Source of the DNA: Clostridia bacterium
GTDB taxonomy: Bacteria > Bacillota > Clostridia > UMGS1883
DNA: 64,000 nucleotides
Direction of reading: 5' to 3'
NCBI GenBank assembly: GCA_017411435.1
Contig: JAFQQD010000031.1
Span: forward strand, 99,777 to 163,776
Part shown: positions 1,125 to 46,275 of the stretch, in pieces
Layout of the letters: each line of letters opens with the position of its first letter
How positions within the stretch are numbered: position 1 is the first letter of the stretch
Translations under genes and position numbers: made by a program
Notes under the pieces: generated by a model
Told to the model about the DNA's origin: nothing
The model's input: only the letters and a program-made list of their open reading frames with translations
Databases searched by the model: none

Positions 1125-1397
1125 CAGCGTGTCGATAAACCTATCGGCACGCTGCCAGACGCGGAAAAAGGAAGGTAAATTTGTTCAACACGAACTCGTA
1201 GGCGCACGAGGGTGCGGTAGAGGGCGTGTTGGACGAAAGTAAGCAAAAACCCTGAAAATTGCAATTTTCAGGGTTTTTTATTATGTGACTAATGGTGTTT
1301 TTTGTTCTTTTATAAGCTTATCGAAAATTTCCAGGCGCTGCAAAAAATATTTACTATTTATTTTTGCTTGCGTTTGACCGACTTTTTCGACAGTCTG
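1125..1397. mobile_element. MITE-like non-autonomous element, copy 1 (~273 bp), with imperfect terminal inverted repeats and an internal bidirectional terminator.
   Basis: About 97% identical to 22368-22639. The terminal inverted repeats (TIRs) are TTCAGCGTGTCGATAAAC at the left end and TTCAGACTGTCGAAAAAG as the reverse complement of the right end. The element is flanked by a duplicated 24-bp palindrome. It contains a hairpin GCGTGTCGATAaaccTATCGGCACGC and a terminator at 1245-1280. Confidence 0.6.
1245..1280. terminator. Bidirectional intrinsic terminator inside the repeated element.
   Basis: aaaaaCCCTGAAAATTgcAATTTTCAGGGtttttt: a 10-11 bp stem with A-run and T-run flanks. Conserved in copy 2 (22488-22523). 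Confidence 0.75.
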
Positions 1398-7272: not shown

Positions 7273-8090
7273 TTCCCTATAAGAACAGTATCAAGTTTAT
7301 AAATATCAATATCAGTTTCAATCACAGCAGTAAGAGTAAGATGTCTGCTGTCTTCTTTTATTTCCGTAATTTTGCCGATTCTGATTCCGCGTGGGAAAAT
7401 ACCGCCTGTTCCGGATGTATCAATTACATCGCCGACAACGGTCTTTGCACTGCGATCTATGTAGTTCATATTACATTTTCCGTTACTGTCACTGAGTCCT
7501 GTCGGCTCAACAATCCCCATATCTCCGCTGCGAAGACAGACTGCCGAAACCGATGTTTTTGTATCAAAAATGGTTTTTACTTTACAGAAATTATAATTTA
7601 CTTCAAAAACCACGCCTACAAGCCCCTCGGGCACCAATACGACATCGTTTACCCCAACACCGTCTTTTTTGCCCTTATCAAGGGTAATTATGCTATTAAA
7701 CTCATCTATTTTTCTGCCGATTACATTAGCACCGACAGTTTCAAAATCCGTACGGGTTTCTTTTAGGTCAATAAGCGCACGCAGACGGTCGTTTTCCGAT
7801 TTGTAGCCCTCGAGCATACGAATCTGGTCATTAAGAGAGGCGATTTCTGATTCCAGTTTTTTGTTTTTCCTGGCATTTTTTCCTGCGGAAGTTATGTTTT
7901 TGAAAAAGTTGCCTGTAGAGCTTGCTACATAACTTGTAGCTTTCTGTACAGGAGATATAACGGTACCGATTGCGTTTGATATAGCGCTGTTCCCCGTTTT
8001 GAAAGAAAATGCTGCAACACAGAGCACCGCCAAAGCTACACAGGAAAATATTATAATATGTTTTTTACCGAATTTTTTCATACATCTCAA
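7260..8090 (-). CDS. mreC: Rod shape-determining protein MreC.
   Basis: 276 aa. N-terminal TM, then a coiled-coil region, then the MreC beta-domain (GDVIDTSGTGGIFPRGIRIGKI). Confidence 0.9.
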   Translation of the reverse strand: MRCMKKFGKKHIIIFSCVALAVLCVAAFSFKTGNSAISNAIGTVISPVQKATSYVASSTGNFFKNITSAGKNARKNKKLESEIASLNDQIRMLEGYKSENDRLRALIDLKETRTDFETVGANVIGRKIDEFNSIITLDKGKKDGVGVNDVVLVPEGLVGVVFEVNYNFCKVKTIFDTKTSVSAVCLRSGDMGIVEPTGLSDSNGKCNMNYIDRSAKTVVGDVIDTSGTGGIFPRGIRIGKITEIKEDSRHLTLTAVIETDIDIYKLDTVLIGKCVE

Positions 8091-15400: not shown

Positions 15401-17944
15401 TTATGTGCTTTCGTTTGAAATATCGCGAATAATCTCCTCTATTTCTTTTTTTGTTTCCTCAATTTCAGTTATAAATGCGGCGGCGCTGATTCTTACTGCA
15501 CCGCTTCCGAGAATTATCAATTGTTCAAGATAATCACTCGTTGCAACCTGAACATGATGCTTTTTACCGAGTTCGTGAACCGCCTTTTCAATATATGCAT
15601 CAGCAGTCTGCGCTTCCTTGGTGTAAACCACAGTAATGTTGTGAATTCTTTCCACTTCTCCGCGGTTTCCTTTTACTTTATAAGCATCAAAAACAACAAT
15701 CACTTCGTACGGACGCATCGCCTTATATGCGCAGATACGGTCAATTAACATATTTCGCGCATCTTCGAGGTTGTCCTTTGCAATTTCTTTGAGTTCGTCC
15801 CACGCAAAAATTATGTTGTAGCCATCGATAAGAAGATAGCCCGGCCCTTCCTTCTGCGCTGATGCACGGTGCTTCTTAGGCGGTGCAACATCCTTTGGAG
15901 TGCGCATTGCATTATGATTTTTGCGCACAATTTTACCGTATGTGCGCTCGAAAATTGCCATAAGTTCGTCATCGTCATAAACTGCTTTTGTCTTTGGGCG
16001 CACCAAAACAGAAATAGCATCATCAGTTTTTTCACTGAAAATACTGTCAAGATGCATAAACTCCGTTACCTGATGCCACGGCACATTAAATCCTGCGCCG
16101 TGCTGACAGAATACGCTGTCTGCACTGTTTTCGATATCTCCATCACAGTTATAGCCGATTTGGGCTACTACCTCATCTTGATTTGCACATTCAAGATACC
16201 CTCTGAAGGAGCATGAAAGTGTGCCGAGTCCGTGGGTATAACTCGTGACGCTGCGCTGATATGAGCGTATTTGTCGAACGGGAGCAAAGCCTGTGATAAC
16301 GGCTTCATTTTCCAGTATCTCGGGAGCATTAACGGTAGCACCCATCTGTTCAAGGTCGGTCATTGCCCTGCCGATTGAGTCTGTCGGCAGATTAAGTGTA
16401 AAGTCGTAATAAGGCTCTAAAAGGACACTTTCAGCACACCTGAGTCCGTGTCGTACTGCGCGGTAGGTCGCCTGGCGAAAATCGCCACCCTCAGTATGCT
16501 TAAGGTGTGCCTTTCCCGATTTTAATGTGATTTTCATATCGGTAATTGCGCTTCCCGTAAGGACGCCGATATGCCTCTTTTCATTAAGGTGTGTGAGAAT
16601 AAGCCTTTGCCAGTTACGGGCAAGGAAATTTTCGTCAGCATCTGTATCGAATTTAAGACCTTCGCCTCTTTTAAGAGGTTCGAGCAGAAGATGTACCTCG
16701 GCATAATGGCGGAGTGGTTCATAGTGACCTACGCCTTCAACCTTGGATGCGATTGTCTCCTTGTATACGATGCTTCCCTGTGCAAATTCAACATCAAGAT
16801 CAAAGCGTTCTTTAAGAAGGCGCTCCATAATTTCAAGTTGAACTTCGCCCATAAGCTGAATATGAATTTCGCCAAGGGCACTGTTGTAGCTCGCGCGGAG
16901 CTGGGTTTCCTCTTCCTCAAGTTTTTTGAGTTTTGCAAGGGCGACACGCGAATCTGTGCCGTCTTTTATGACAACACGGTAGTTAAAGACGGGTTCAAGT
17001 GTGAGAGAAGGAGAATTTTTTTCAAATCCTAAACCCTCGCCGCCCGATAGGGACGAAATCCCGCAAACTGCACAGACATCGCCCGATGTAACTTCCGAAG
17101 CACTTTTATATTTTTCGCCTGAATATATACGGATTTCGGATACCTTTTCCTCGCCTATTTTATCACGGACGCAAAGTTTTCCGCCTGTTATTTTCATATG
17201 GGTAAGGCGTGCACCTTTTTCATCCTCCGAAATTTTGAAAACACGGGCACCGAAATTTTCGTTTTTGTCAGCATAGAGAGTGTATTTTTCTATTCCTGAA
17301 AGGAGTTCTTTGACGCCCTCGTTTTTTAAGGCTGAACCGAAATAGCATGGGAATATTTTGCGTTGTGCAATGGCATTTTTTATTTCATCATCAGTAATAG
17401 TTCCGTTTTCAAGGTAAAAATCACAAAGTTCTTCACTGCAAAGTGCAGTTTCCTCAAAAAAGGTTTCATCGTCATTTCCAAACACAACAAAACCACCCCC
17501 AAAGGCATTTATAAGCCCCTGGAGGTTTTTGTCGGCATCTGCCGTTTGCATATCCATTTTATTTACAAATACGAAGGTGGGTATTGCGTGGTCTGACAAA
17601 AGTTTCCACAGGGTTTTTGTATGACTCTGCACACCTTCGGCACCATTTATTACGAGTATTGCCGCATCAAGCGCCCAGAGAACTCTTTCCGCTTCTGCGG
17701 AAAAATCCACATGTCCCGGAGTGTCAAGTAGGGTTATTTGTGCATTTTCTGTATTTATTACCGCCTGCTTTGAAAATATGGTAATTCCGCGGTCGCGCTC
17801 CATATCATTTGTGTCCAGAAAAGCGTCTCCGTGGTCCACTCTCCCTAATTTGCGGATTTCGCCCGATGTAAAAAGCATCGCCTCGGAAAGAGTGGTTTTA
17901 CCACTGTCAACATGCGCCAGTATTCCCAGTGCTATTTTTTTCAT
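15401..17944 (-). CDS. Fusion protein. The N-terminal ~680 aa is a TetM/TetO/EF-G-like translational GTPase. The C-terminal ~160 aa is a YacP/Rae1-type NYN (PIN-like) ribonuclease domain.
   Basis: 847 aa. N-terminus AHVDSGKTTLSEAMLF...RGITI...DTPGH...NKMD and overall collinearity with the ribosomal protection protein family. C-terminus LLIDGYNIIFAW...VIVVFDAYKVKG...TADAYIEKAV...VATSDYLEQ closely parallels B. subtilis YacP/Rae1 (VDGYNMIGAW...VIVVFDAHLVKG...TADERIEK...VATSDYTEQ). Confidence 0.75.
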   Translation of the reverse strand: MKKIALGILAHVDSGKTTLSEAMLFTSGEIRKLGRVDHGDAFLDTNDMERDRGITIFSKQAVINTENAQITLLDTPGHVDFSAEAERVLWALDAAILVINGAEGVQSHTKTLWKLLSDHAIPTFVFVNKMDMQTADADKNLQGLINAFGGGFVVFGNDDETFFEETALCSEELCDFYLENGTITDDEIKNAIAQRKIFPCYFGSALKNEGVKELLSGIEKYTLYADKNENFGARVFKISEDEKGARLTHMKITGGKLCVRDKIGEEKVSEIRIYSGEKYKSASEVTSGDVCAVCGISSLSGGEGLGFEKNSPSLTLEPVFNYRVVIKDGTDSRVALAKLKKLEEEETQLRASYNSALGEIHIQLMGEVQLEIMERLLKERFDLDVEFAQGSIVYKETIASKVEGVGHYEPLRHYAEVHLLLEPLKRGEGLKFDTDADENFLARNWQRLILTHLNEKRHIGVLTGSAITDMKITLKSGKAHLKHTEGGDFRQATYRAVRHGLRCAESVLLEPYYDFTLNLPTDSIGRAMTDLEQMGATVNAPEILENEAVITGFAPVRQIRSYQRSVTSYTHGLGTLSCSFRGYLECANQDEVVAQIGYNCDGDIENSADSVFCQHGAGFNVPWHQVTEFMHLDSIFSEKTDDAISVLVRPKTKAVYDDDELMAIFERTYGKIVRKNHNAMRTPKDVAPPKKHRASAQKEGPGYLLIDGYNIIFAWDELKEIAKDNLEDARNMLIDRICAYKAMRPYEVIVVFDAYKVKGNRGEVERIHNITVVYTKEAQTADAYIEKAVHELGKKHHVQVATSDYLEQLIILGSGAVRISAAAFITEIEETKKEIEEIIRDISNEST

Positions 17945-34995: not shown

Positions 34996-36042
34996 ATGAA
35001 AGCATATTTGACACTCGAAAACGGCAGTGTTTTCGAAGGCACCCTAATCGGTGCCGAGGGCGAAACTGTCGGTGAAATAGTTTTCTCAACTACTATGGGA
35101 AGTTACATTGAAGCACTGACTGACCCCGCATCTTACGGACAGATTCTCGTGCAGACTTTCCCCCTTATTGGTAACTACGGAATGATTTATTCCGATATGG
35201 AAAGCGATAAGATTCATGCAAAGGGTTATGTAGTACGCGAGATGTGTGACATCCCCTCTAACTTCCGCTGCGAGGGAACGCTTGACAGTTTCCTTAAAGA
35301 ACAGGGAATCGTGGGAATATGCGGCGTTGACACTCGTGAAATCACAAAGATTATCCGCGAGGAAGGTACAATGGCAGCACGCATCACAACAAAGGCACCC
35401 GATGGCGAAAAGATTACACTTCCTGAAATTAAGGACGCAGCAGCCGAAGTTTCCACAAAGGAAAAATATACAGTTGGCGAAGGAAAGGTTAAAATTGCAT
35501 TCCTTGACCTTGGAACAAAGAAAAGCGCAGTAAATGTACTTGCTTCGCGTGGCGCAAGTGTTGATGTGCTCCCATTTGGCACAAAGGCGGACGAGCTCTT
35601 ATCATATGACGCAATTTATCTTTCAGACGGTCCGGGAAATCCCGATGACTTAAAAGAAATTGCCGAAGAAATAAAGAAAGTTTTCGGTAAAAAGCCCATT
35701 CTTGCAACAGGGCTTGGACACCAGATACTTGCGATGGCAAACGGTGCAAAGTGCGAAAAGCTCCACCACGGACATCACGGCGCAAATCAGCCCGTAAAGC
35801 AGATTGAAAGCGGAAGAGTCTATATCACTCTTCAGAATCATAACTTTGCGGTATCGAGCGACTCTCTCCCCGACTTTGCCAAGGTTACTTATGAAAACCT
35901 TAACGATAAGAGTGTTGAGGGTATTGAATACATCGGTAAGGATGCTCTCTCCCTTCAGTTTGCTCTTATTGAGGGCGAGGGTCCTAACGAAACAGGTTTT
36001 CTTTATAACAAATATTTTGAAATGATTGGAGGTAAGCACTGA
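34996..36042 (+). CDS. carA: Carbamoyl-phosphate synthase small (glutamine amidotransferase) subunit.
   Basis: Start at ATG 34996 (RBS GGAAAGG). N-terminal CPSase small-chain domain and GATase triad region (...GHQIL..., H.GHHG). Confidence 0.85.
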   Translation: MKAYLTLENGSVFEGTLIGAEGETVGEIVFSTTMGSYIEALTDPASYGQILVQTFPLIGNYGMIYSDMESDKIHAKGYVVREMCDIPSNFRCEGTLDSFLKEQGIVGICGVDTREITKIIREEGTMAARITTKAPDGEKITLPEIKDAAAEVSTKEKYTVGEGKVKIAFLDLGTKKSAVNVLASRGASVDVLPFGTKADELLSYDAIYLSDGPGNPDDLKEIAEEIKKVFGKKPILATGLGHQILAMANGAKCEKLHHGHHGANQPVKQIESGRVYITLQNHNFAVSSDSLPDFAKVTYENLNDKSVEGIEYIGKDALSLQFALIEGEGPNETGFLYNKYFEMIGGKH

Positions 36043-39000
36043 TGCCTAAGAATAAAGACATTAAAAAGGTACTCGTTATAGGCAGCGGCCCTATTGTAAT
36101 CGGACAGGCTGCAGAGTTTGACTACGCAGGCGCTCAGGCATGCCGTGTTCTTCGTGATGAGGGCGTGAATATCGTCCTTGTTAACTCCAATCCTGCTACA
36201 ATTATGACAGATAAGGCGCTCGCGGATGAGATTTATCTCGAGCCGCTTACAACAGATACAATCAAGAGAATTATTGAAAAGGAACGCCCCGACAGTATCC
36301 TTGCATCACTTGGCGGACAGACAGGTCTTACAATTGCGATGCAGCTTGATAAGGAAGGCTACCTTGACAAAATGGGCGTAAAACTCATCGGCACAAATGC
36401 CGAAGCGATTGACCGCGCTGAAGACCGTGAGCTTTTCAAGGAAACGATGCTCAAAATCGGTCAGAGTTGTATTCCGTCCGATATCGCAACAACTGTTGAC
36501 GATTCTCTTGCAATTGCAGAGAAAATCGGTTACCCCGTAATTGTTCGTCCCGCATTCACACTCGGTGGTGCGGGCGGCGGTGTTGCATATGACCGTGACA
36601 CACTTGCAAAAATTGCGAATAACGGTCTTACACTCTCCCCCATTACTCAGGTACTTATTGAAAAATACATTTACGGATGGAAAGAAGTAGAGTTTGAGGT
36701 TATGCGTGACCATGCAGGAAACGCTATCACTATTTGTAGCATGGAAAATGTGGACCCCGTTGGTATCCACACAGGCGACAGTATCGTTGTTGCTCCTGCA
36801 GCTACACTTTCAGATAAAGAATATTCAATGCTCAGAAAAGCGGCACTTGACATTATTACTGAACTCAAAATCGAGGGTGGATGTAACTGTCAGTTCGCAC
36901 TTAATCCCGACAGCTTTGAATACGCAGTTATTGAGGTTAACCCCCGTGTTTCCCGTTCGTCTGCTCTTGCAAGTAAGGCGACAGGCTACCCGATTGCAAA
37001 GGTTACTACAAAAATTGCGCTCGGCTACACACTTGACGAAATTAAAAACGATGTTACCGGCATAACTTATGCTTGTTTTGAGCCTGCCGTTGACTATATG
37101 GTTGTTAAATTCCCCAAGTGGCCGTTTGACAAATTTGTGTACGCCGACAGAAAACTCGGTACACAGATGAAGGCAACGGGCGAAGTAATGTCTATCGGTA
37201 ATTCATTTGAATCTGCGCTTATGAAGGCGGTTCGCGGTGCTGAACTTAAGACTGAAACTCTTTTCCATAAGGAAGTTCACGAAATTGAAGATATCGAAAA
37301 GAAACTTTACGACCTTGACGACCTTCGTATTTTTACTGTTTATGAGGCGCTTGTAAGAGGAATTAGTGTTGACAGAATCAACGAAATCACACGCATTGAC
37401 AAGTGGTTCTTATCCAAGATTAAAAATATTGTAGATTATGAAAAGAGCATCCTTGGAAATCTTACAGAGGAACTTTACGAAAAGGGTAAGAAACTCGGCT
37501 TTACCGACAAGGCACTTGAGGAAATCAGCGGATGCAAAGTTCCCACTCATAAAAACTGTGTTTACAAAATGGTTGACACCTGCGGCGGCGAATTTGCTGC
37601 AAAGACACCTTACTTCTATTCAACTTATGATGAGAACTGTGAGGCAAGAGCAGTTTCTACCAATAATAAAAAGGTTATCGTTTTAGGCTCAGGTCCCATC
37701 AGAATCGGTCAGGGTATCGAGTTTGACTACTCCTCCGTTCATTGTGTATGGGCACTCAAGGATATGGGCTACGAGGTTATTATCATAAATAACAACCCCG
37801 AAACTGTTTCAACAGACTTTGACACAGCAGACCGCCTTTACTTTGAGCCGCTTACTCCCGAAGATGTAATGAATGTTATCGAGGTTGAAAAGCCCGAGGG
37901 CGTTGTTGTTGCATTCGGTGGACAGACCGCAATCAAGCTCGTTAAATTCCTTGACGAAAGCGGCATCAAAATCCTTGGTACATCTGCAAAGAGTATCGAT
38001 ATGGCAGAAGACCGTGAGCAGTTTGACGCACTCCTTGAAAAGTTCAACATTAAGAGACCCAGTGGTCTTTCTGTAATGACAAAGGAAGAGGCTCTTAACG
38101 CTGCCGAAACACTTGGTTACCCCGTTCTTCTTCGTCCTTCATATGTAATCGGCGGTCAGAATATGACTATTGCTTATAAGGAAGAAGATGTTGTGCAGTA
38201 TATGGACATCATCCTCGCACAGAAGATTGAAAACCCCGTACTTGTCGATAAGTACATGATGGGTAAGGAGCTTGAAGTTGATATCATAAGCGATGGTAAG
38301 GATGTTCTTATCCCCGGCATTATGGAGCATGTTGAACGCGCAGGCGTACACAGTGGTGACTCCATTGCCGTATATCCCCCGTTCAATGTAACTGACAAGA
38401 TGCTTGATAAGATTGTTGACTGCTCGACAAAACTTGCACTTTCTCTTAAGACACAGGGACTTATCAACATTCAGTATGTTATATATGATAATGAACTTTA
38501 TGTAATCGAGGTTAATCCCCGTGCCTCAAGAACAGTTCCTTATATCAGTAAGGTAACAGGCATCCCCATGATTGACCTTGCAACCCAGGTTATGCAGGGA
38601 GCGTCCCTTCTTTCCCTCGGATACGGAAGCGGACTTTACAAGATGCCTCCCTACTACGCAGTTAAGGTTCCCGTTTTCTCGTTTGAAAAACTTTCGGGCA
38701 TCAACTCAATTCTTGGTCCTGAAATGAAGTCAACAGGCGAGGTGCTCGGTATTGGTAAAACTCTTAACGAAGCACTTTACAAGGGACTTATGGCGGCAGG
38801 CTTCAACCTTGAAAGCCGCGGTGGTGTATATATCAGCGTTGATTCAAAGGATAAGTATGACCTTATCGAGCTTGCAAAGAAACTCCACGATGCAGGTCTT
38901 GAGCTCTACGCCGATGAAATGAATGCGCTCATCATTGATTCGCTGGGTATTCCCGTTGAAACTGTTGACGGCGAAAAGATTTACTCACTTATCGAAAGCG

Positions 39001-40046
39001 AAAAGGTTGGTTATATCATCCACACCAATTCCGGCCGTCCCAAGGAAATCGAGAAGTTTATAAGACTTCATCGCCGTGCGCTTCAACTCAGTATCGCGTG
39101 TCTTACATCGCTTGATACTGCGCACGCACTTGCGGACATTCTTTTAAGCCGATTTAATCAGTACAATACTGAACTTACAGATATAGCGAAACTTCGTACG
39201 GAAAAACTTAACATACCCTTTATCAAGATGCAGGGTACGGGCGATGACTATATCTTCATCAACAACTTTGACGGCAAGATTGCATTCCCGGAGGCTCTTG
39301 CAATCGTATTCTCCGACCGTCACAGAGGTATCGGTGCAGACGGACTTGTTCTTATTGAAAAATCCGAGGTTGCCGATGCGAAGATGCGTATATTCAACAC
39401 AGACGGCAGCGAAGGTAAAATGGCAGGTAACTCTATCCGCTGCGTAGGTAAGTACCTTTACGATAACGGATATACAACTCACCGTCATATCACAATTGAA
39501 ACTGCAAGCGGTATCAGAAAACTTACGCTTCATCTTTTCGACCACAAGGTTACAAGCGTAACTGTTCAGATGGGCGATCCGCAGTTTGACCCCAAGGCTA
39601 TCCCCGTTGATATGCCCGGAGATAAGGTAATAAACGAAAAAGTTGCTATCGGTGGTAAGGATTATAATATAACCTGTCTTTCAATTGGTAATCCGCACTG
39701 TGTTGTTATCTGCGACAATGTGTATAACATCGATGTTAAGACAATCGGTCCCCGTTTTGAAAATGCACCTATCTTCCCTGAAAGAATCAATACTGAGTTT
39801 GTCAAGATTATTGACAAGCGCACAATCAGAATGAGAGTTTGGGAGCGCGGCAACGGTGAAACACAGGCTTGCGGTACAGGTGCCGTAGCAGCAGCAATTG
39901 CTGCAGTTGAAAACGGATACTGTGAAAAGGATACTGATATCATCGTAAGAGTTGAGGGTGGCGAGCTTATCGTCCGCTACAGTGATGAAGGCGTATTCCT
40001 GACAGGTGACGCTGAAAAGGTATTCGAAGGCATTTATGAATATTAA
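36042..40046 (+). CDS. carB: Carbamoyl-phosphate synthase large subunit, continuing in frame into a C-terminal diaminopimelate epimerase (DapF) domain.
   Basis: 1334 aa. Residues 1 to ~1066 are a full CarB: two ATP-grasp halves, the oligomerisation domain and the MGS-like domain. Residues ~1068-1334 (nt ~39225-40046) read IPFIKMQGTGDDYIF...GNSIRC...GNPHCV...ACGTGA, i.e. DapF with both catalytic Cys. The overlap with the carA stop (ATGA) suggests translational coupling. Confidence 0.85.
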   Translation: MPKNKDIKKVLVIGSGPIVIGQAAEFDYAGAQACRVLRDEGVNIVLVNSNPATIMTDKALADEIYLEPLTTDTIKRIIEKERPDSILASLGGQTGLTIAMQLDKEGYLDKMGVKLIGTNAEAIDRAEDRELFKETMLKIGQSCIPSDIATTVDDSLAIAEKIGYPVIVRPAFTLGGAGGGVAYDRDTLAKIANNGLTLSPITQVLIEKYIYGWKEVEFEVMRDHAGNAITICSMENVDPVGIHTGDSIVVAPAATLSDKEYSMLRKAALDIITELKIEGGCNCQFALNPDSFEYAVIEVNPRVSRSSALASKATGYPIAKVTTKIALGYTLDEIKNDVTGITYACFEPAVDYMVVKFPKWPFDKFVYADRKLGTQMKATGEVMSIGNSFESALMKAVRGAELKTETLFHKEVHEIEDIEKKLYDLDDLRIFTVYEALVRGISVDRINEITRIDKWFLSKIKNIVDYEKSILGNLTEELYEKGKKLGFTDKALEEISGCKVPTHKNCVYKMVDTCGGEFAAKTPYFYSTYDENCEARAVSTNNKKVIVLGSGPIRIGQGIEFDYSSVHCVWALKDMGYEVIIINNNPETVSTDFDTADRLYFEPLTPEDVMNVIEVEKPEGVVVAFGGQTAIKLVKFLDESGIKILGTSAKSIDMAEDREQFDALLEKFNIKRPSGLSVMTKEEALNAAETLGYPVLLRPSYVIGGQNMTIAYKEEDVVQYMDIILAQKIENPVLVDKYMMGKELEVDIISDGKDVLIPGIMEHVERAGVHSGDSIAVYPPFNVTDKMLDKIVDCSTKLALSLKTQGLINIQYVIYDNELYVIEVNPRASRTVPYISKVTGIPMIDLATQVMQGASLLSLGYGSGLYKMPPYYAVKVPVFSFEKLSGINSILGPEMKSTGEVLGIGKTLNEALYKGLMAAGFNLESRGGVYISVDSKDKYDLIELAKKLHDAGLELYADEMNALIIDSLGIPVETVDGEKIYSLIESEKVGYIIHTNSGRPKEIEKFIRLHRRALQLSIACLTSLDTAHALADILLSRFNQYNTELTDIAKLRTEKLNIPFIKMQGTGDDYIFINNFDGKIAFPEALAIVFSDRHRGIGADGLVLIEKSEVADAKMRIFNTDGSEGKMAGNSIRCVGKYLYDNGYTTHRHITIETASGIRKLTLHLFDHKVTSVTVQMGDPQFDPKAIPVDMPGDKVINEKVAIGGKDYNITCLSIGNPHCVVICDNVYNIDVKTIGPRFENAPIFPERINTEFVKIIDKRTIRMRVWERGNGETQACGTGAVAAAIAAVENGYCEKDTDIIVRVEGGELIVRYSDEGVFLTGDAEKVFEGIYEY

Positions 40047-40073: not shown

Positions 40074-40079
40074 AAGTTT

Positions 40080-40134
40080 GGGGACAGGTCAATTTTTGTT
40101 ACGCCTGCGGCTTACAAAAATGTCCCCGTCCCCC
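40080..40134. repeat. GC-rich REP-like long imperfect palindrome (GGGGACAGG...CCCCGTCCCC), copy 1.
   Basis: GGGGACAGGTCAATTTTTGTTacgcctgcggcTTACAAAAATGTCCCCGTCCCC. A related copy is at 46187-46275. Confidence 0.7.
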
Positions 40135-46165: not shown

Positions 46166-46186
46166 AGTTTTGCTCCTTTTCTTATT

Positions 46187-46275
46187 GGGGACAGGTCAAT
46201 TTTTGTTGCACCTACCTGCTTGGGGACGGGGCAGTTTCTGTTACACCTTCGGTTTACATAAACTCCCCCGTCCCC
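46187..46275. repeat. GC-rich REP-like palindromic repeat, copy 2. It carries an internal tandem duplication of the 5' arm.
   Basis: GGGGACAGGTCAATTTTTGTTgcacctacctgctt, then GGGGACGGGGcagtttctgttacaccttcggtttacataaactcCCCCGTCCCC with a perfect 10-bp terminal stem. Located between the HIT gene and alaS. Confidence 0.7.

Follow-up and report, generated by a model that had tools for sequence, protein, structure and literature searches.

A MITE with IS1182-family termini in Oscillospiraceae and other Clostridia that inserts in terminator hairpins and duplicates them

Two intergenic segments of about 272 bp recur almost unchanged in the window, by which we mean the whole 64-kb stretch of clostridial DNA analysed here. 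Are they mobile DNA, or a small-RNA locus that happens to occur twice? An earlier note, made by reading the window, had taken them for a MITE and had named as the alternative a pair of convergent small RNAs sharing a terminator, as in type I toxin-antitoxin loci. We found that they belong to mobile DNA of a kind already known, of which they are a new member: an IS1182-family MITE that inserts in terminator hairpins and duplicates them.

Two copies, their duplicated hairpins and an empty site

Copy A (1125-1397, plus strand, 273 bp, running from left end to right end) and copy B (22368-22639, plus strand, 272 bp) are collinear and differ, in pairwise alignment, by 9 substitutions and one 1-nt indel, which bears out the identity of about 97% read earlier. 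A repeat search of the window gave 97% and 96% for the two halves. Each terminus was found solely at these two places in the 64-kb window, where chance alone would give 0 occurrences. As the earlier note had seen, the genes on either side of each copy are convergent: copy A between a YpsA-like gene (stop codon at 1098-1100) and HydF, and copy B between a 102-aa ORF and the gene of an SLH/DUF4901 protein. No conserved ORF was found inside the element, either in the window copies or in the family alignment, and the longer ORFs just run out into the flanking DNA, again as had been noted.

Copy A is bracketed by two exact copies of the 24-bp sequence AAGCGAGTTCGTACGAACTCGCTT, at 1101-1124 and 1398-1421, which is a bidirectional terminator hairpin between ypsA-like and hydF. 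Likewise, copy B stands between two exact copies of the 28-bp sequence AAAGGCTGTGAATTGGTCACAGCCTTTT, at 22340-22367 and 22640-22667. In four syntenic relatives (L068-L071), the HydF-YpsA gap measures 23-28 bp, compared to 323 bp in the window, and consists of a single hairpin, e.g. AAAAGAGAGTTCGTATGAACTCTCTTTT. Copy A therefore arose by insertion with a target-site duplication of the length of the palindrome. Two of these four empty-site relatives bear the element at other sites (L037; L015/L023/L043). For copy B, whose site is covered by none of the collected loci, the empty allele is predicted to read ...AAAACAAAAAAAGGCTGTGAATTGGTCACAGCCTTTTTTAATTACAG.... Exact-protein look-ups of the genes flanking the element returned matches in the same strain alone, where the element is present. 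Pairing L062 with the window at ~43 kb as reciprocal empty and occupied sites gave no usable comparison, synteny being broken there.

A search for further copies, taking exact matches to the first 23 nt of the left-terminal palindrome as the pattern, recovered 56 loci in 21 species-level MAGs (Oscillospiraceae/Clostridia), and further copies came from metagenomes; the family thus reaches beyond the two window copies, whereas a restriction to these two would, for the earlier note, have counted against its reading. One MAG has three copies with 98.9-99.3% identity, yet each has different duplications, and the median identity of copies is 89% within genomes versus 69% between genomes. Amplification within genomes has therefore been recent. 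No coding sequence lies between the element ends at any of the 56 genome loci, and no multi-copy ORFs were found there. The element had no match in BLAST searches of plasmid and phage collections, nor did either terminus in two scans of viral contigs. Of the 49 long window ORFs, 29 were scanned against Pfam, spanning 8.7-56.5 kb; these scans identified housekeeping genes only and no mobile-element gene; the genes identified at 0.5-8.7 kb are housekeeping too.

The same hairpin was present on both sides of 26 of the 30 complete family members; these scored 15 or more, whereas shuffled sequences reached 11 at most. Twelve duplications are exact; they measure 20-30 bp (mean, 25.5), and their centre coincides with the hairpin dyad in 10 cases and is off by at most 1 nt in the other 2. 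Of 58 left ends, 50 adjoin a perfect stem-loop with 8 bp or more, compared to 1.8% of random genomic positions. The target hairpins are unrelated in sequence among themselves, and the flanks share no common motif. Insertions were found in convergent (11) and tandem (11) gene contexts and in no divergent one; within tandem contexts, orientation was mixed (7 co-oriented versus 4 anti-oriented).

Could the flanking repeats have predated the insertion, as tandem terminators, or have been homogenised later by gene conversion? Such a history would suit the copies that stand between two different hairpins, namely 4 of the 30, three members of subfamily B and the IS of plasmid pTVN. However, the orthologous empty sites hold one hairpin in a gap of 23-28 bp, exact duplications centred on the dyad occur at 12 unrelated sites, asymmetric loops included, and perfect duplications already surround near-identical young copies. 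We therefore consider pre-existing or homogenised repeats highly unlikely. The duplication of one hairpin at insertion leaves the two-hairpin cases unexplained, and for these we assume recombination between copies or capture of adjacent hairpins. Inverted loops in the flanking hairpins are rare (2 of 30); we dropped them for this reason as a sign of a hairpin-replication mechanism, and they would be read more simply as template-switch loop inversions.

Taken together, the small size with no transposase gene, the terminal inverted repeats, the target-site duplications with an orthologous empty site, the dispersed, polymorphic copies and the amplification within genomes bear out the MITE reading of the earlier note. 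They support the view that the two 272-bp repeats are, as far as their sequence tells, MITE copies with IS1182-family termini.

Termini shared with IS1182-family insertion sequences

The termini of the element read CAGCGTGTCGATAAACC on the left and CAGACTGTCGAAAAAGTCGG, as reverse complement, on the right. The terminal inverted repeats, CAGCGTGTCGATAAA and CAGACTGTCGAAAAA, are identical at 12 of 15 positions, and an imperfect inverted repeat runs further, to GCAAGCAAAA and TTTTGCTTGC, and covaries between subfamilies. The earlier note was thus right that imperfect inverted repeats are present, but the tip that it had included ('TT...AA') belongs to the target duplication and lies outside the element. 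It had overlooked the exact hairpin duplication bracketing each copy, and also the link to a transposase family.

The left end of copy A is formed by a terminal palindrome, H1 (CAGCGTGTCGATAAACCTATCGGCACGCTG, 1125-1154, plus strand; 22368-22397 in copy B), whose first ~17 nt constitute the left inverted repeat. Folding gave a 13-bp stem in all subfamilies; the hairpin of 11 bp described earlier is present and reaches 13 bp when CAG/CTG is counted, with one T.G wobble. The H1 motif matches the ends of IS1182-type ISs. It is followed by a second inverted-repeat-like block (CAGACGCGGAAAAAGGAAGGTAAATTT, 1156-1182, plus strand), conserved across subfamilies with a nearly invariant, single-stranded core, which resembles the right end in reverse complement (CAGAC...GAAAAAG). 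At the other side, the conserved right end (TTTTTGCTTGCGTTTGACCGACTTTTTCGACAGTCTG, 1361-1397, plus strand; 22603-22639 in copy B) provides the right inverted repeat with its last ~20 nt, and its segment TTTTGCTTGC covaries with GCAAGCAAAA at 1240-1249. Direct reading of the letters confirmed that the right half is AT-rich; its variable segment (1285-1360, plus strand) is unconserved between subfamilies in the family alignment.

Three IS1182-type ISs (L074, L079 and L135) have transposase-proximal ends that agree with this right end at every position over 18-19 nt. Gene fragments of decayed ISs bearing this right terminus matched NF033551, the NCBIfam model of the IS1182 family, with E values of 2.5e-39 and 7.8e-30, compared to only about 1e-13 with IS5 models. 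The terminus motif also occurs in ISs that were found independently by protein similarity, and all of these adjoin hairpins: CAGACTGTCGAAAAAGTCC in L135, CAGCCTGTCGAAAAAGTCC in L136 and pTVN, CAGCTTGTCGAAAAAGG and CAAACTGTAGAAAAACC at the two ends of L124, and CAGATTGTCCAAAAAGCC in L137. It is likewise present in L128 and in Subdoligranulum. The consensus of the IS termini is CAGnnTGTCGAAAAAG, which the left terminus of the element fits less well than the right one. Moreover, L124 is an IS of 1503 bp flanked by a 32-bp hairpin duplication, identical at 29 of 32 positions.

An intact transposase was found in the pTVN IS only, where it scored 400 bits against NF033551 (cut-off, 270). This IS comes from an annotated plasmid of another Oscillospiraceae genus (Thermocaproicibacter), and its end matches that of the element at 17 of 19 nt. 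Neither the window's organism, represented by the 64-kb window, nor the fragmented element-bearing MAGs yielded an intact partner transposase; every partner IS copy recovered from metagenomes is frameshifted or truncated. Homologue searches returned, among the matches listed, only fragments of at most 290 aa, because these ISs break assemblies. The element is best explained as being moved in trans by an IS1182-family DDE transposase, and we put the probability of this explanation as a whole, judged from sequence, at about 0.85.

We also weighed whether an enzyme of another class might move the element: a Cas1/casposase-like integrase, a tyrosine or serine recombinase, or an HUH enzyme (IS200/IS605, RAYT). 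The duplication of a palindrome of ~25 bp does resemble the way in which Cas1-Cas2 duplicates repeats, as well as the duplications of 14-15 bp that casposons make, and the hairpins of the element, like its G.T-tolerant strand asymmetry, would suit a single-strand mechanism. Nevertheless, the termini are of the IS1182-family DDE type, as the DNA pattern showed and protein similarity showed independently, and ISs of this type show the same hairpin adjacency, with the same kind of duplication in L124. HUH elements give no target duplication and insert by a fixed short motif, whereas the flanks here share none, and the mixed orientation relative to genes in tandem contexts speaks against another enzyme too. 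The part of the window that was scanned contains no gene for cas1, a recombinase or RAYT. Another enzyme class is therefore very unlikely. Among the individual candidates, casposon or Cas1 integration was rejected on the DDE-type ends, on the lack of cas1 among the window ORFs scanned and on duplications of 20-30 bp that vary with the hairpin; REP/BIME, RAYT and IS200/IS605 (HUH) elements were rejected on the long duplications, the mixed orientation and the lack of a flank motif. A guide resembling IS110 bridge RNA or omega RNA was dropped as well, since the targets share no sequence and subfamily B has no RNA-like module.

The structured interior and its terminator

Between the ends, copy A contains a covarying stem-loop at 1180-1237 (plus strand), composed of a 13-bp outer helix, a conserved internal loop and the apical hairpin GCGCAC-GAGG-GTGCG. 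In the alignment of copies, the comparison that the earlier note had proposed, the stem-loop came out strongly: 96.3% of the cells are paired, 14 of the 21 pairs show compensatory changes, and the score was reached by none of 500 shuffles, while slid controls gave 35-52%. RNAalifold agreed, predicting essentially the same outer helix and apical hairpin, with the inner 3-bp helix absent from its prediction. A covariance model of the module matches copy A at 1164-1244; the structured module of copy B lies at 22407-22487.

Downstream follows an internal intrinsic terminator (AAAAACCCTGAAAATTGCAATTTTCAGGGTTTTT, 1245-1278; 22488-22521 in copy B), which the terminator scan matched on both strands, in line with the perfect bidirectional terminator described earlier. 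In other subfamilies, a hairpin of different sequence occupies the same place. Over the 30 complete copies, the internal hairpin scored as a terminator on the plus strand in 20, on the minus strand in 21 and on both in 17.

These features raise again the possibility that the element is primarily a small-RNA locus, made of convergent small RNAs sharing a terminator or of a type I toxin-antitoxin pair, and that its spread is incidental. In favour of such a locus, the left half has a covarying, strand-specific stem-loop followed by an intrinsic terminator. No known RNA family fits it: no Rfam match reached the gathering score in the window, and a permissive scan gave weak matches, all overlapping the terminator hairpin region. 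In Rfam, then, no housekeeping ncRNA family accounts for the element; such a match would, for the earlier note, have counted against its reading. On the other hand, the peptide evidence points away from a toxin. The minus-strand stop-free stretch behind the mini-ORF (V/L)LNKFTFLFPRL(A/P)ACR, put forward earlier as a candidate, has no conserved start codon, and its peptide alters radically exactly where the nucleotide stems covary. The other candidate, the 7-codon ORF MV(F/S)FVLL, falls in the variable segment, and the right half is unconserved between subfamilies. No sigma-70-type promoter was predicted inside the window copy, and subfamily B, with the same ends, spreads without the module. 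Finally, the target duplications, the empty site and the transposase-type termini mark the unit as a transposon. With neither a conserved ORF nor an Rfam family behind it, we regard a primary small-RNA or toxin-antitoxin locus as extremely unlikely.

Neither subfamily B nor any IS copy contains the module. Because this sister subfamily has the same ends, the module is dispensable in cis for mobility. The stem-loop is probably folded as RNA, and it would then ride in a 3' extension of the transcript of the upstream gene. We also considered that it acts instead as DNA, either as a single-stranded top strand or as a cruciform, in transposition or replication. DNA stem-loops are what the enzyme family of this element recognises (PMC5678879). 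Furthermore, DNA hairpins tolerate G.T pairs, no promoter is predicted in the element, and, since most copies have a bidirectional internal terminator, the transcribed strand is not fixed by the terminator alone. A cruciform, however, requires folding of both strands, yet the wobble pairs are one-sided (66 G.U versus 8 A.C); RNAs are usually laid out in just this way, with a terminator behind a helix; and the absence of the module from subfamily B and all IS copies argues against a requirement in cis. A role at the DNA level thus seems possible but somewhat unlikely. A still bolder proposal, which we consider improbable, is that the stem-loop is a functional ncRNA, or a top-strand DNA structure, acting with the IS1182-type transposase; it might then act in trans to regulate or assist structure-directed integration. 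If this were true, the element would be an RNA-bearing MITE and not a passive deletion derivative. As a conserved structured module, the stem-loop is a candidate new RNA motif.

A model of insertion and its relation to known systems

In the mechanism that we propose, the transposase would pick its target by shape and not by sequence, the shape being the palindromic stem-loop that intrinsic terminators form where genes end at the 3' side. The element ends would join opposite strands at symmetric points ~10-15 bp either side of the hairpin dyad, which lie 5' of the palindrome on each strand, and repair of the two single-stranded gaps would copy the whole hairpin. Staggered joining around the dyad would therefore yield a target-site duplication of 20-30 bp that is itself a terminator. 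The stagger may stem from attack on an extruded cruciform or from a symmetric transposase complex, in correspondence with pathway b of the IS1272 model; the sequence is compatible with cruciform attack as well as with a fixed-length ruler on B-form DNA.

Once the element is in place, each outer hairpin should keep its T-tract on the outward side only. The internal terminator, bidirectional in most copies, would then be the main stop for transcripts entering from the flanking genes, whereas the duplicated hairpins would stop those that leave the element. With the internal and the duplicated terminators, insertion would therefore be nearly neutral for the host, a design that hints at how transposons can reside at gene ends while costing the host little. 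For the annotation of gut Oscillospiraceae, the family explains a recurrent intergenic repeat, duplicated terminators and many MAG contig breaks.

Several known systems share features with this element. Class C group II introns also home to the stem-loops of intrinsic terminators, recognised as structure. These introns, however, are ribozyme retroelements with a length of 600 nt or more; they insert directly behind the hairpin, on its downstream side, and do not duplicate it; the present element has no intron features, and an ORF-less group II intron was rejected for this reason. The analogy with Cas1-Cas2 and casposons is formal only: integration at both borders of a sequence of ~14-36 bp, often palindromic, duplicates that sequence, which is the CRISPR repeat for Cas1-Cas2 and a target of 14-15 bp for casposons. 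The element is not a member of this group: another enzyme family is involved, the scanned window ORFs include no cas1, and the ends here are those of a DDE-type IS. For the IS1182 family, ISfinder gives direct repeats of 0-60 bp.

The IS1182-family ISs of Oscillospiraceae and enterococci (the pTVN IS of Thermocaproicibacter, ISEfa7, and the metagenomic copies L074, L079, L124 and L135-L137) have in common with the element the terminus motif and the position directly against the terminator hairpin of a gene. In contrast, they measure 1.4-1.5 kb, encode or once encoded a transposase, share just ~25 terminal nt with the 273-bp element and do not contain its structured interior. MITEPye1, an IS1182-family MITE of Paracoccus yeei, is similarly non-autonomous and intergenic, with IS1182-like inverted repeats and predicted stem-loops when co-transcribed (PMC11578231). 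However, it has 4-bp direct repeats, a low copy number, a proteobacterial host and no reported hairpin targeting, whereas here whole terminators are duplicated in Clostridia hosts.

The closest likeness in target choice is to IS1272 and TnSha1, IS1182-family elements of staphylococci that target terminator hairpins without sequence specificity and insert in either orientation (PMC4923244, PMC5678879). The transposase family is related, and in both cases terminator-type inverted repeats are chosen by structure, with a stem-loop and no consensus at 50 of 58 left flanks here. The present element differs in having no transposase gene. It also differs in the outcome: published IS1272 and TnSha1 insertions remove the stem-loop, in part or completely, and are not accompanied by a duplication, whereas here the stem-loop is not deleted but duplicated whole (20-30 bp). 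Such a duplication is what the structure-dependent model predicts for attack at the 5' feet of the stem-loop (PMC5678879). The family is a natural record of a DDE transposase choosing its targets by DNA shape, in dozens of independent insertions, each in a different terminator hairpin and with a duplication whose length and centre follow the palindrome. It thus supports the 'duplicating' branch of the IS1272 model, hypothetical until now, and the 273-bp element offers a substrate on which that model can be tested.

Two window copies and their target-site duplications

The 273-bp element can be assigned as a MITE of the IS1182 family that duplicates a whole terminator as its target. Its two window copies, at 1125-1397 (copy A, 273 bp) and 22368-22639 (copy B, 272 bp), are collinear, with 9 substitutions and a single 1-nt indel between them, as established by alignment and repeat search. 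Both termini were found only at these two positions within the window, with 0 occurrences expected by chance. Several features described in the earlier note were recovered: the terminal hairpin by sequence inspection, the perfect bidirectional terminator at 1245-1278 by a terminator scan, the lack of a plausible ORF by ORF listing, and the GC-rich left and AT-rich right halves by direct reading of the sequence rather than from a composition profile. The neighboring genes are indeed convergent, a YpsA-like gene facing HydF at copy A and a 102-aa ORF facing an SLH/DUF4901 protein gene at copy B.

While the earlier note correctly saw the pair of elements, it missed the direct repeats of an entire hairpin that bracket each copy. 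Copy A is flanked by exact repeats of AAGCGAGTTCGTACGAACTCGCTT (1101-1124 and 1398-1421) and copy B by exact repeats of AAAGGCTGTGAATTGGTCACAGCCTTTT (22340-22367 and 22640-22667), each being a complete local hairpin. The two hairpins have no sequence relation to each other, and each serves its own gene pair as a bidirectional terminator.

Identical HydF or YpsA proteins were encoded only on contigs of the same strain, which also carried the element, and we therefore compared HydF homologues of 81 to 84% identity. In four syntenic loci from other genomes (L068-L071), the HydF-stop to YpsA-stop gap measures 23 to 28 bp and corresponds to one hairpin, e.g., ataaAAAAGAGAGTTCGTATGAACTCTCTTTTtta, whereas the 323-bp gap of the window consists of the orthologous hairpin, 273 bp, and the hairpin again. 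These orthologous empty sites prove insertion at the HydF/YpsA site. Two of the four "empty" genomes, the MAGs JAZREK01 and CAYMHB01, harbor the element at other sites.

Spread, target hairpins, and interior of the family

The search for further copies was positive: the exact left terminus was present at 56 loci in 21 species-level MAGs of Clostridia/Oscillospiraceae. The sampled sources include the human gut (Hadza among others), sheep colon, and red deer, and Ructibacterium is represented by one MAG. Many copies lie at contig ends, as expected of repeats. The proposal of a MITE holds, in that this is a real mobile element with target duplication, IS1182-type ends, and dispersed copies. Of 58 left ends, 50 directly adjoin a perfect stem-loop (≥8 bp), a feature seen at 1.8% of positions drawn randomly from these loci and at 0.2% in shuffled controls. 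The same hairpin is found on both sides of 26 of the 30 complete copies, with alignment scores of at least 15 against a maximum of 11 over 600 shuffled controls. The exact duplications (n = 12) span 20 to 30 bp (mean, 25.5) and are centered on the hairpin dyad in 10 cases, the offset being at most 1 nt in the remaining two. Stem pairing can often extend 1 to 5 bp past the duplicated block, and the joints are therefore located inside the outer stem. Gene contexts were convergent (11), tandem co-oriented (7), or tandem anti-oriented (4), but never divergent (0).

Median copy identity was 89% within one genome versus 69% between genomes. Three CAYMHB01 copies are 98.9 to 99.3% identical although their duplications differ (25, 28, and 22 bp), pointing to recent amplification in this MAG.

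As exceptions to the pattern of a single duplicated hairpin, two different hairpins flank 4 of the 30 complete copies (L016, L024, L034, and L055). Unlike flanks were also seen for all three complete copies of subfamily B, a group of sister elements, and for an intact insertion sequence (IS) on the Thermocaproicibacter plasmid pTVN (L147/L150). Such flanks may have arisen by recombination between copies or by capture of two neighboring terminators. At L012 and L025, the left and right flanking hairpins are reverse complements of each other, having identical stems but inverted loops (GAAT versus ATTC and TC versus GA), and at L058:4336-4365 the left-end palindrome H1 is flipped relative to the rest of the copy. 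These cases possibly reflect loop inversion by template switching.

From left to right, the MITE starts with H1, a 30-nt palindrome formed by the left inverted repeat and its near-complement, followed by a second repeat-like block whose core, CAGACnnnGAAAAAGGAAGGTAAATTT, hardly varies. Next is a long helix, variable in sequence between subfamilies, inside which lie an internal loop that is conserved and the apical hairpin, GCGYAC-nnnn-GTRCG. GAAAGCAAGCAAAA separates this helix from a hairpin terminator of variable sequence, after which come a variable AT-rich stretch and the conserved right end. Across 36 distinct sequences, 96.3% of cells in the stem-loop module were paired, against 35 to 52% with slid partners, and 14 of 21 pairs showed compensatory double changes (120 cells), a score reached by 0 of 500 shuffles. 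Independently, RNAalifold predicted the outer helix and apical hairpin in essentially this form, without the inner 3-bp helix. Wobbles were one-sided (66 G.U versus 8 A.C), and the + strand is therefore the folded one. The conservation of its loops suggests that the module is specifically recognized. Searches with its covariance model matched copies of the 273-bp MITE only, with no match in IS copies, subfamily B, or elsewhere in the window. GCAAGCAAAA and the right-end-proximal TTTTGCTTGC covary across subfamilies; thus, the ends are imperfect inverted repeats of ~38 nt into which the stem-loop is set. Of 30 copies, 20 scored for the internal terminator on the + strand and 21 on the - strand, including 17 that scored on both. 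The alternative of a toxin-antitoxin locus or small-RNA pair was not supported; Rfam gave no match to the MITE, and no sigma-70-type promoter was predicted in its window copy.

Longer variants (L031, L032, and L059) carry two or more tandem modules sharing the apical motif GGCGTAyg... but having different outer stems. A second small repeat of ~95 bp, ending in GGGTGAAGCGGCACGCTTC, is nested within L057 and L052 just after the internal terminator, where TTTATTA borders it left and right. The L062 element has this repeat as its right boundary (L062:~7600-7700), and a related sequence directly follows the HydF stop codon at L072:3192-3370. The core AGCGTGYCG is common to this repeat and the MITE terminus.

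Related IS1182-family elements

No coding sequence lies between the MITE ends in any of the 56 loci, and no intact transposase was recovered from any MITE-carrying genome. A Pfam scan of the window from 8.7 to 56.5 kb (29 of 49 long ORFs) returned housekeeping genes only. Among the ORFs, 36042-40046 (+) encodes a single 1334-aa product joining the carbamoyl-phosphate synthase large chain to a C-terminal diaminopimelate epimerase domain (Pfam), an unusual fusion if real, and 15401-17944 (-) encodes 847 aa with EF-G-like GTPase domains and a C-terminal YacP-like NYN nuclease domain (Pfam). The window also holds three copies, 83 to 93% identical, of a 29-nt motif, TTGGGGACAGGTCAATTTTTGTTACGCCT: one upstream of the argininosuccinate synthase gene (40078-40106) and two in tandem between a HIT-family gene and the 3' end of alaS (46185-46213 and 46220-46248).

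Scanning metagenomes for the right terminus yielded 51 loci, of which about one-third are chance matches inside genes. Subfamily B (L076, L082, L101, and truncated copies) has the MITE ends, GAGCGTGTCGATAAACC... and ...CGACTTTTTCGACAGTCTG, around an unrelated interior; MITE families sharing one transposase usually have the same ends and unrelated interiors. Decayed ISs at L074 and L079 have the MITE right terminus as their outer end, with a transposase gene starting ~80 nt inside it. The gene fragments match NCBIfam NF033551 (IS1182 family transposase) with E values of 2.5e-39 and 7.8e-30, versus only about 1e-13 for IS5 models; Pfam gives DUF772. The L074 element is ~1.4 kb long, with ends CAGACTGTCGAAAAAGTCG / CAGATTGTCGAAAAACATT.

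The same terminus motif, directly adjoining a hairpin, was present in IS copies found independently by protein similarity: L124 (1503 bp; ends CAGCTTGTCGAAAAAGG / CAAACTGTAGAAAAACC; flanked by a 32-bp hairpin duplication, 29/32 identical), L128 (end CAGCCCGTCGAAAAACC), L135 (end CAGACTGTCGAAAAAGTCC, sharing 18 identical nt with the right end of the MITE), L136 (after the ispF terminator of a Hominicoprocola MAG), and L137 (after the glf terminator). The nearest relatives in annotated plasmids are labeled "IS1182 family transposase" or "IS1182-like element ISEfa7." The pTVN copy is a 1526-bp IS (ends CAGCCTGTCGAAAAAGTCC / CAGATTGTCGAAGAACCC) encoding an intact 473-aa transposase, which scores 400 bits against NF033551 (cut-off, 270).

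A terminator-like hairpin lies immediately inside each inverted repeat in L074, L079, L124, L128, L135, L136, L137, L147, and L149, its A-tract being the GAAAAAG of the repeat, e.g., GAAAAAGTCCAGTGAAAGCTGGGCTTTTT. These inner hairpins presumably shield the transposase gene from outside transcription.

Proposed mechanism and comparison with known elements

Our comparisons showed insertion, hairpin targeting, dyad-centered duplication of palindrome length, IS1182-type ends, and recent spread. We propose a symmetric transposase complex that would join each 3' end to a different strand, on that strand's 5' side of the palindrome. The complex would act on a cruciform or else span ~2.5 helical turns, and gap repair would then copy the hairpin. 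In the resulting state, TTCAGCG would follow the left hairpin and CTGAA precede the right one, the T-tract being kept on the outward side only. Since the outer hairpins would have only this outward T-tract, transcripts entering from either gene would probably be stopped by the internal bidirectional terminator, and those leaving the element by the outer hairpins. Such insulation would make terminators low-cost landing sites, and mRNA of the upstream gene would carry the structured module in its 3' extension. The MITE bears on transposon mechanism and on the annotation of gut Clostridia.

ISfinder lists direct repeats of 0 to 60 bp for the IS1182 family. In E. faecium, the left end of ISEfa7, CAGACTGTAGACAAAGTCC, is preceded by a second, partial copy of this repeat with a hairpin after it (L148:~2080-2180). 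This layout recalls both the left-end tandem duplications described for IS1272 and the arrangement of H1 and second repeat in the MITE. A published IS1182-family MITE, MITEPye1, has 4-bp repeats (PMC11578231). IS1272 and TnSha1, two IS1182-family elements, insert into terminator hairpins irrespective of sequence and delete the stem-loop partly or wholly (PMC4923244; PMC5678879); other palindrome-targeting members are attributed to Siguier et al., as cited in these two papers. The model of PMC5678879 has the 3' ends attacking a cruciform that has been extruded: when its 3' feet are attacked, the stem-loop is deleted, and when its 5' feet are attacked, the whole stem-loop is duplicated. The MITE family and the L124 IS show the latter, stem-loop-duplicating outcome.
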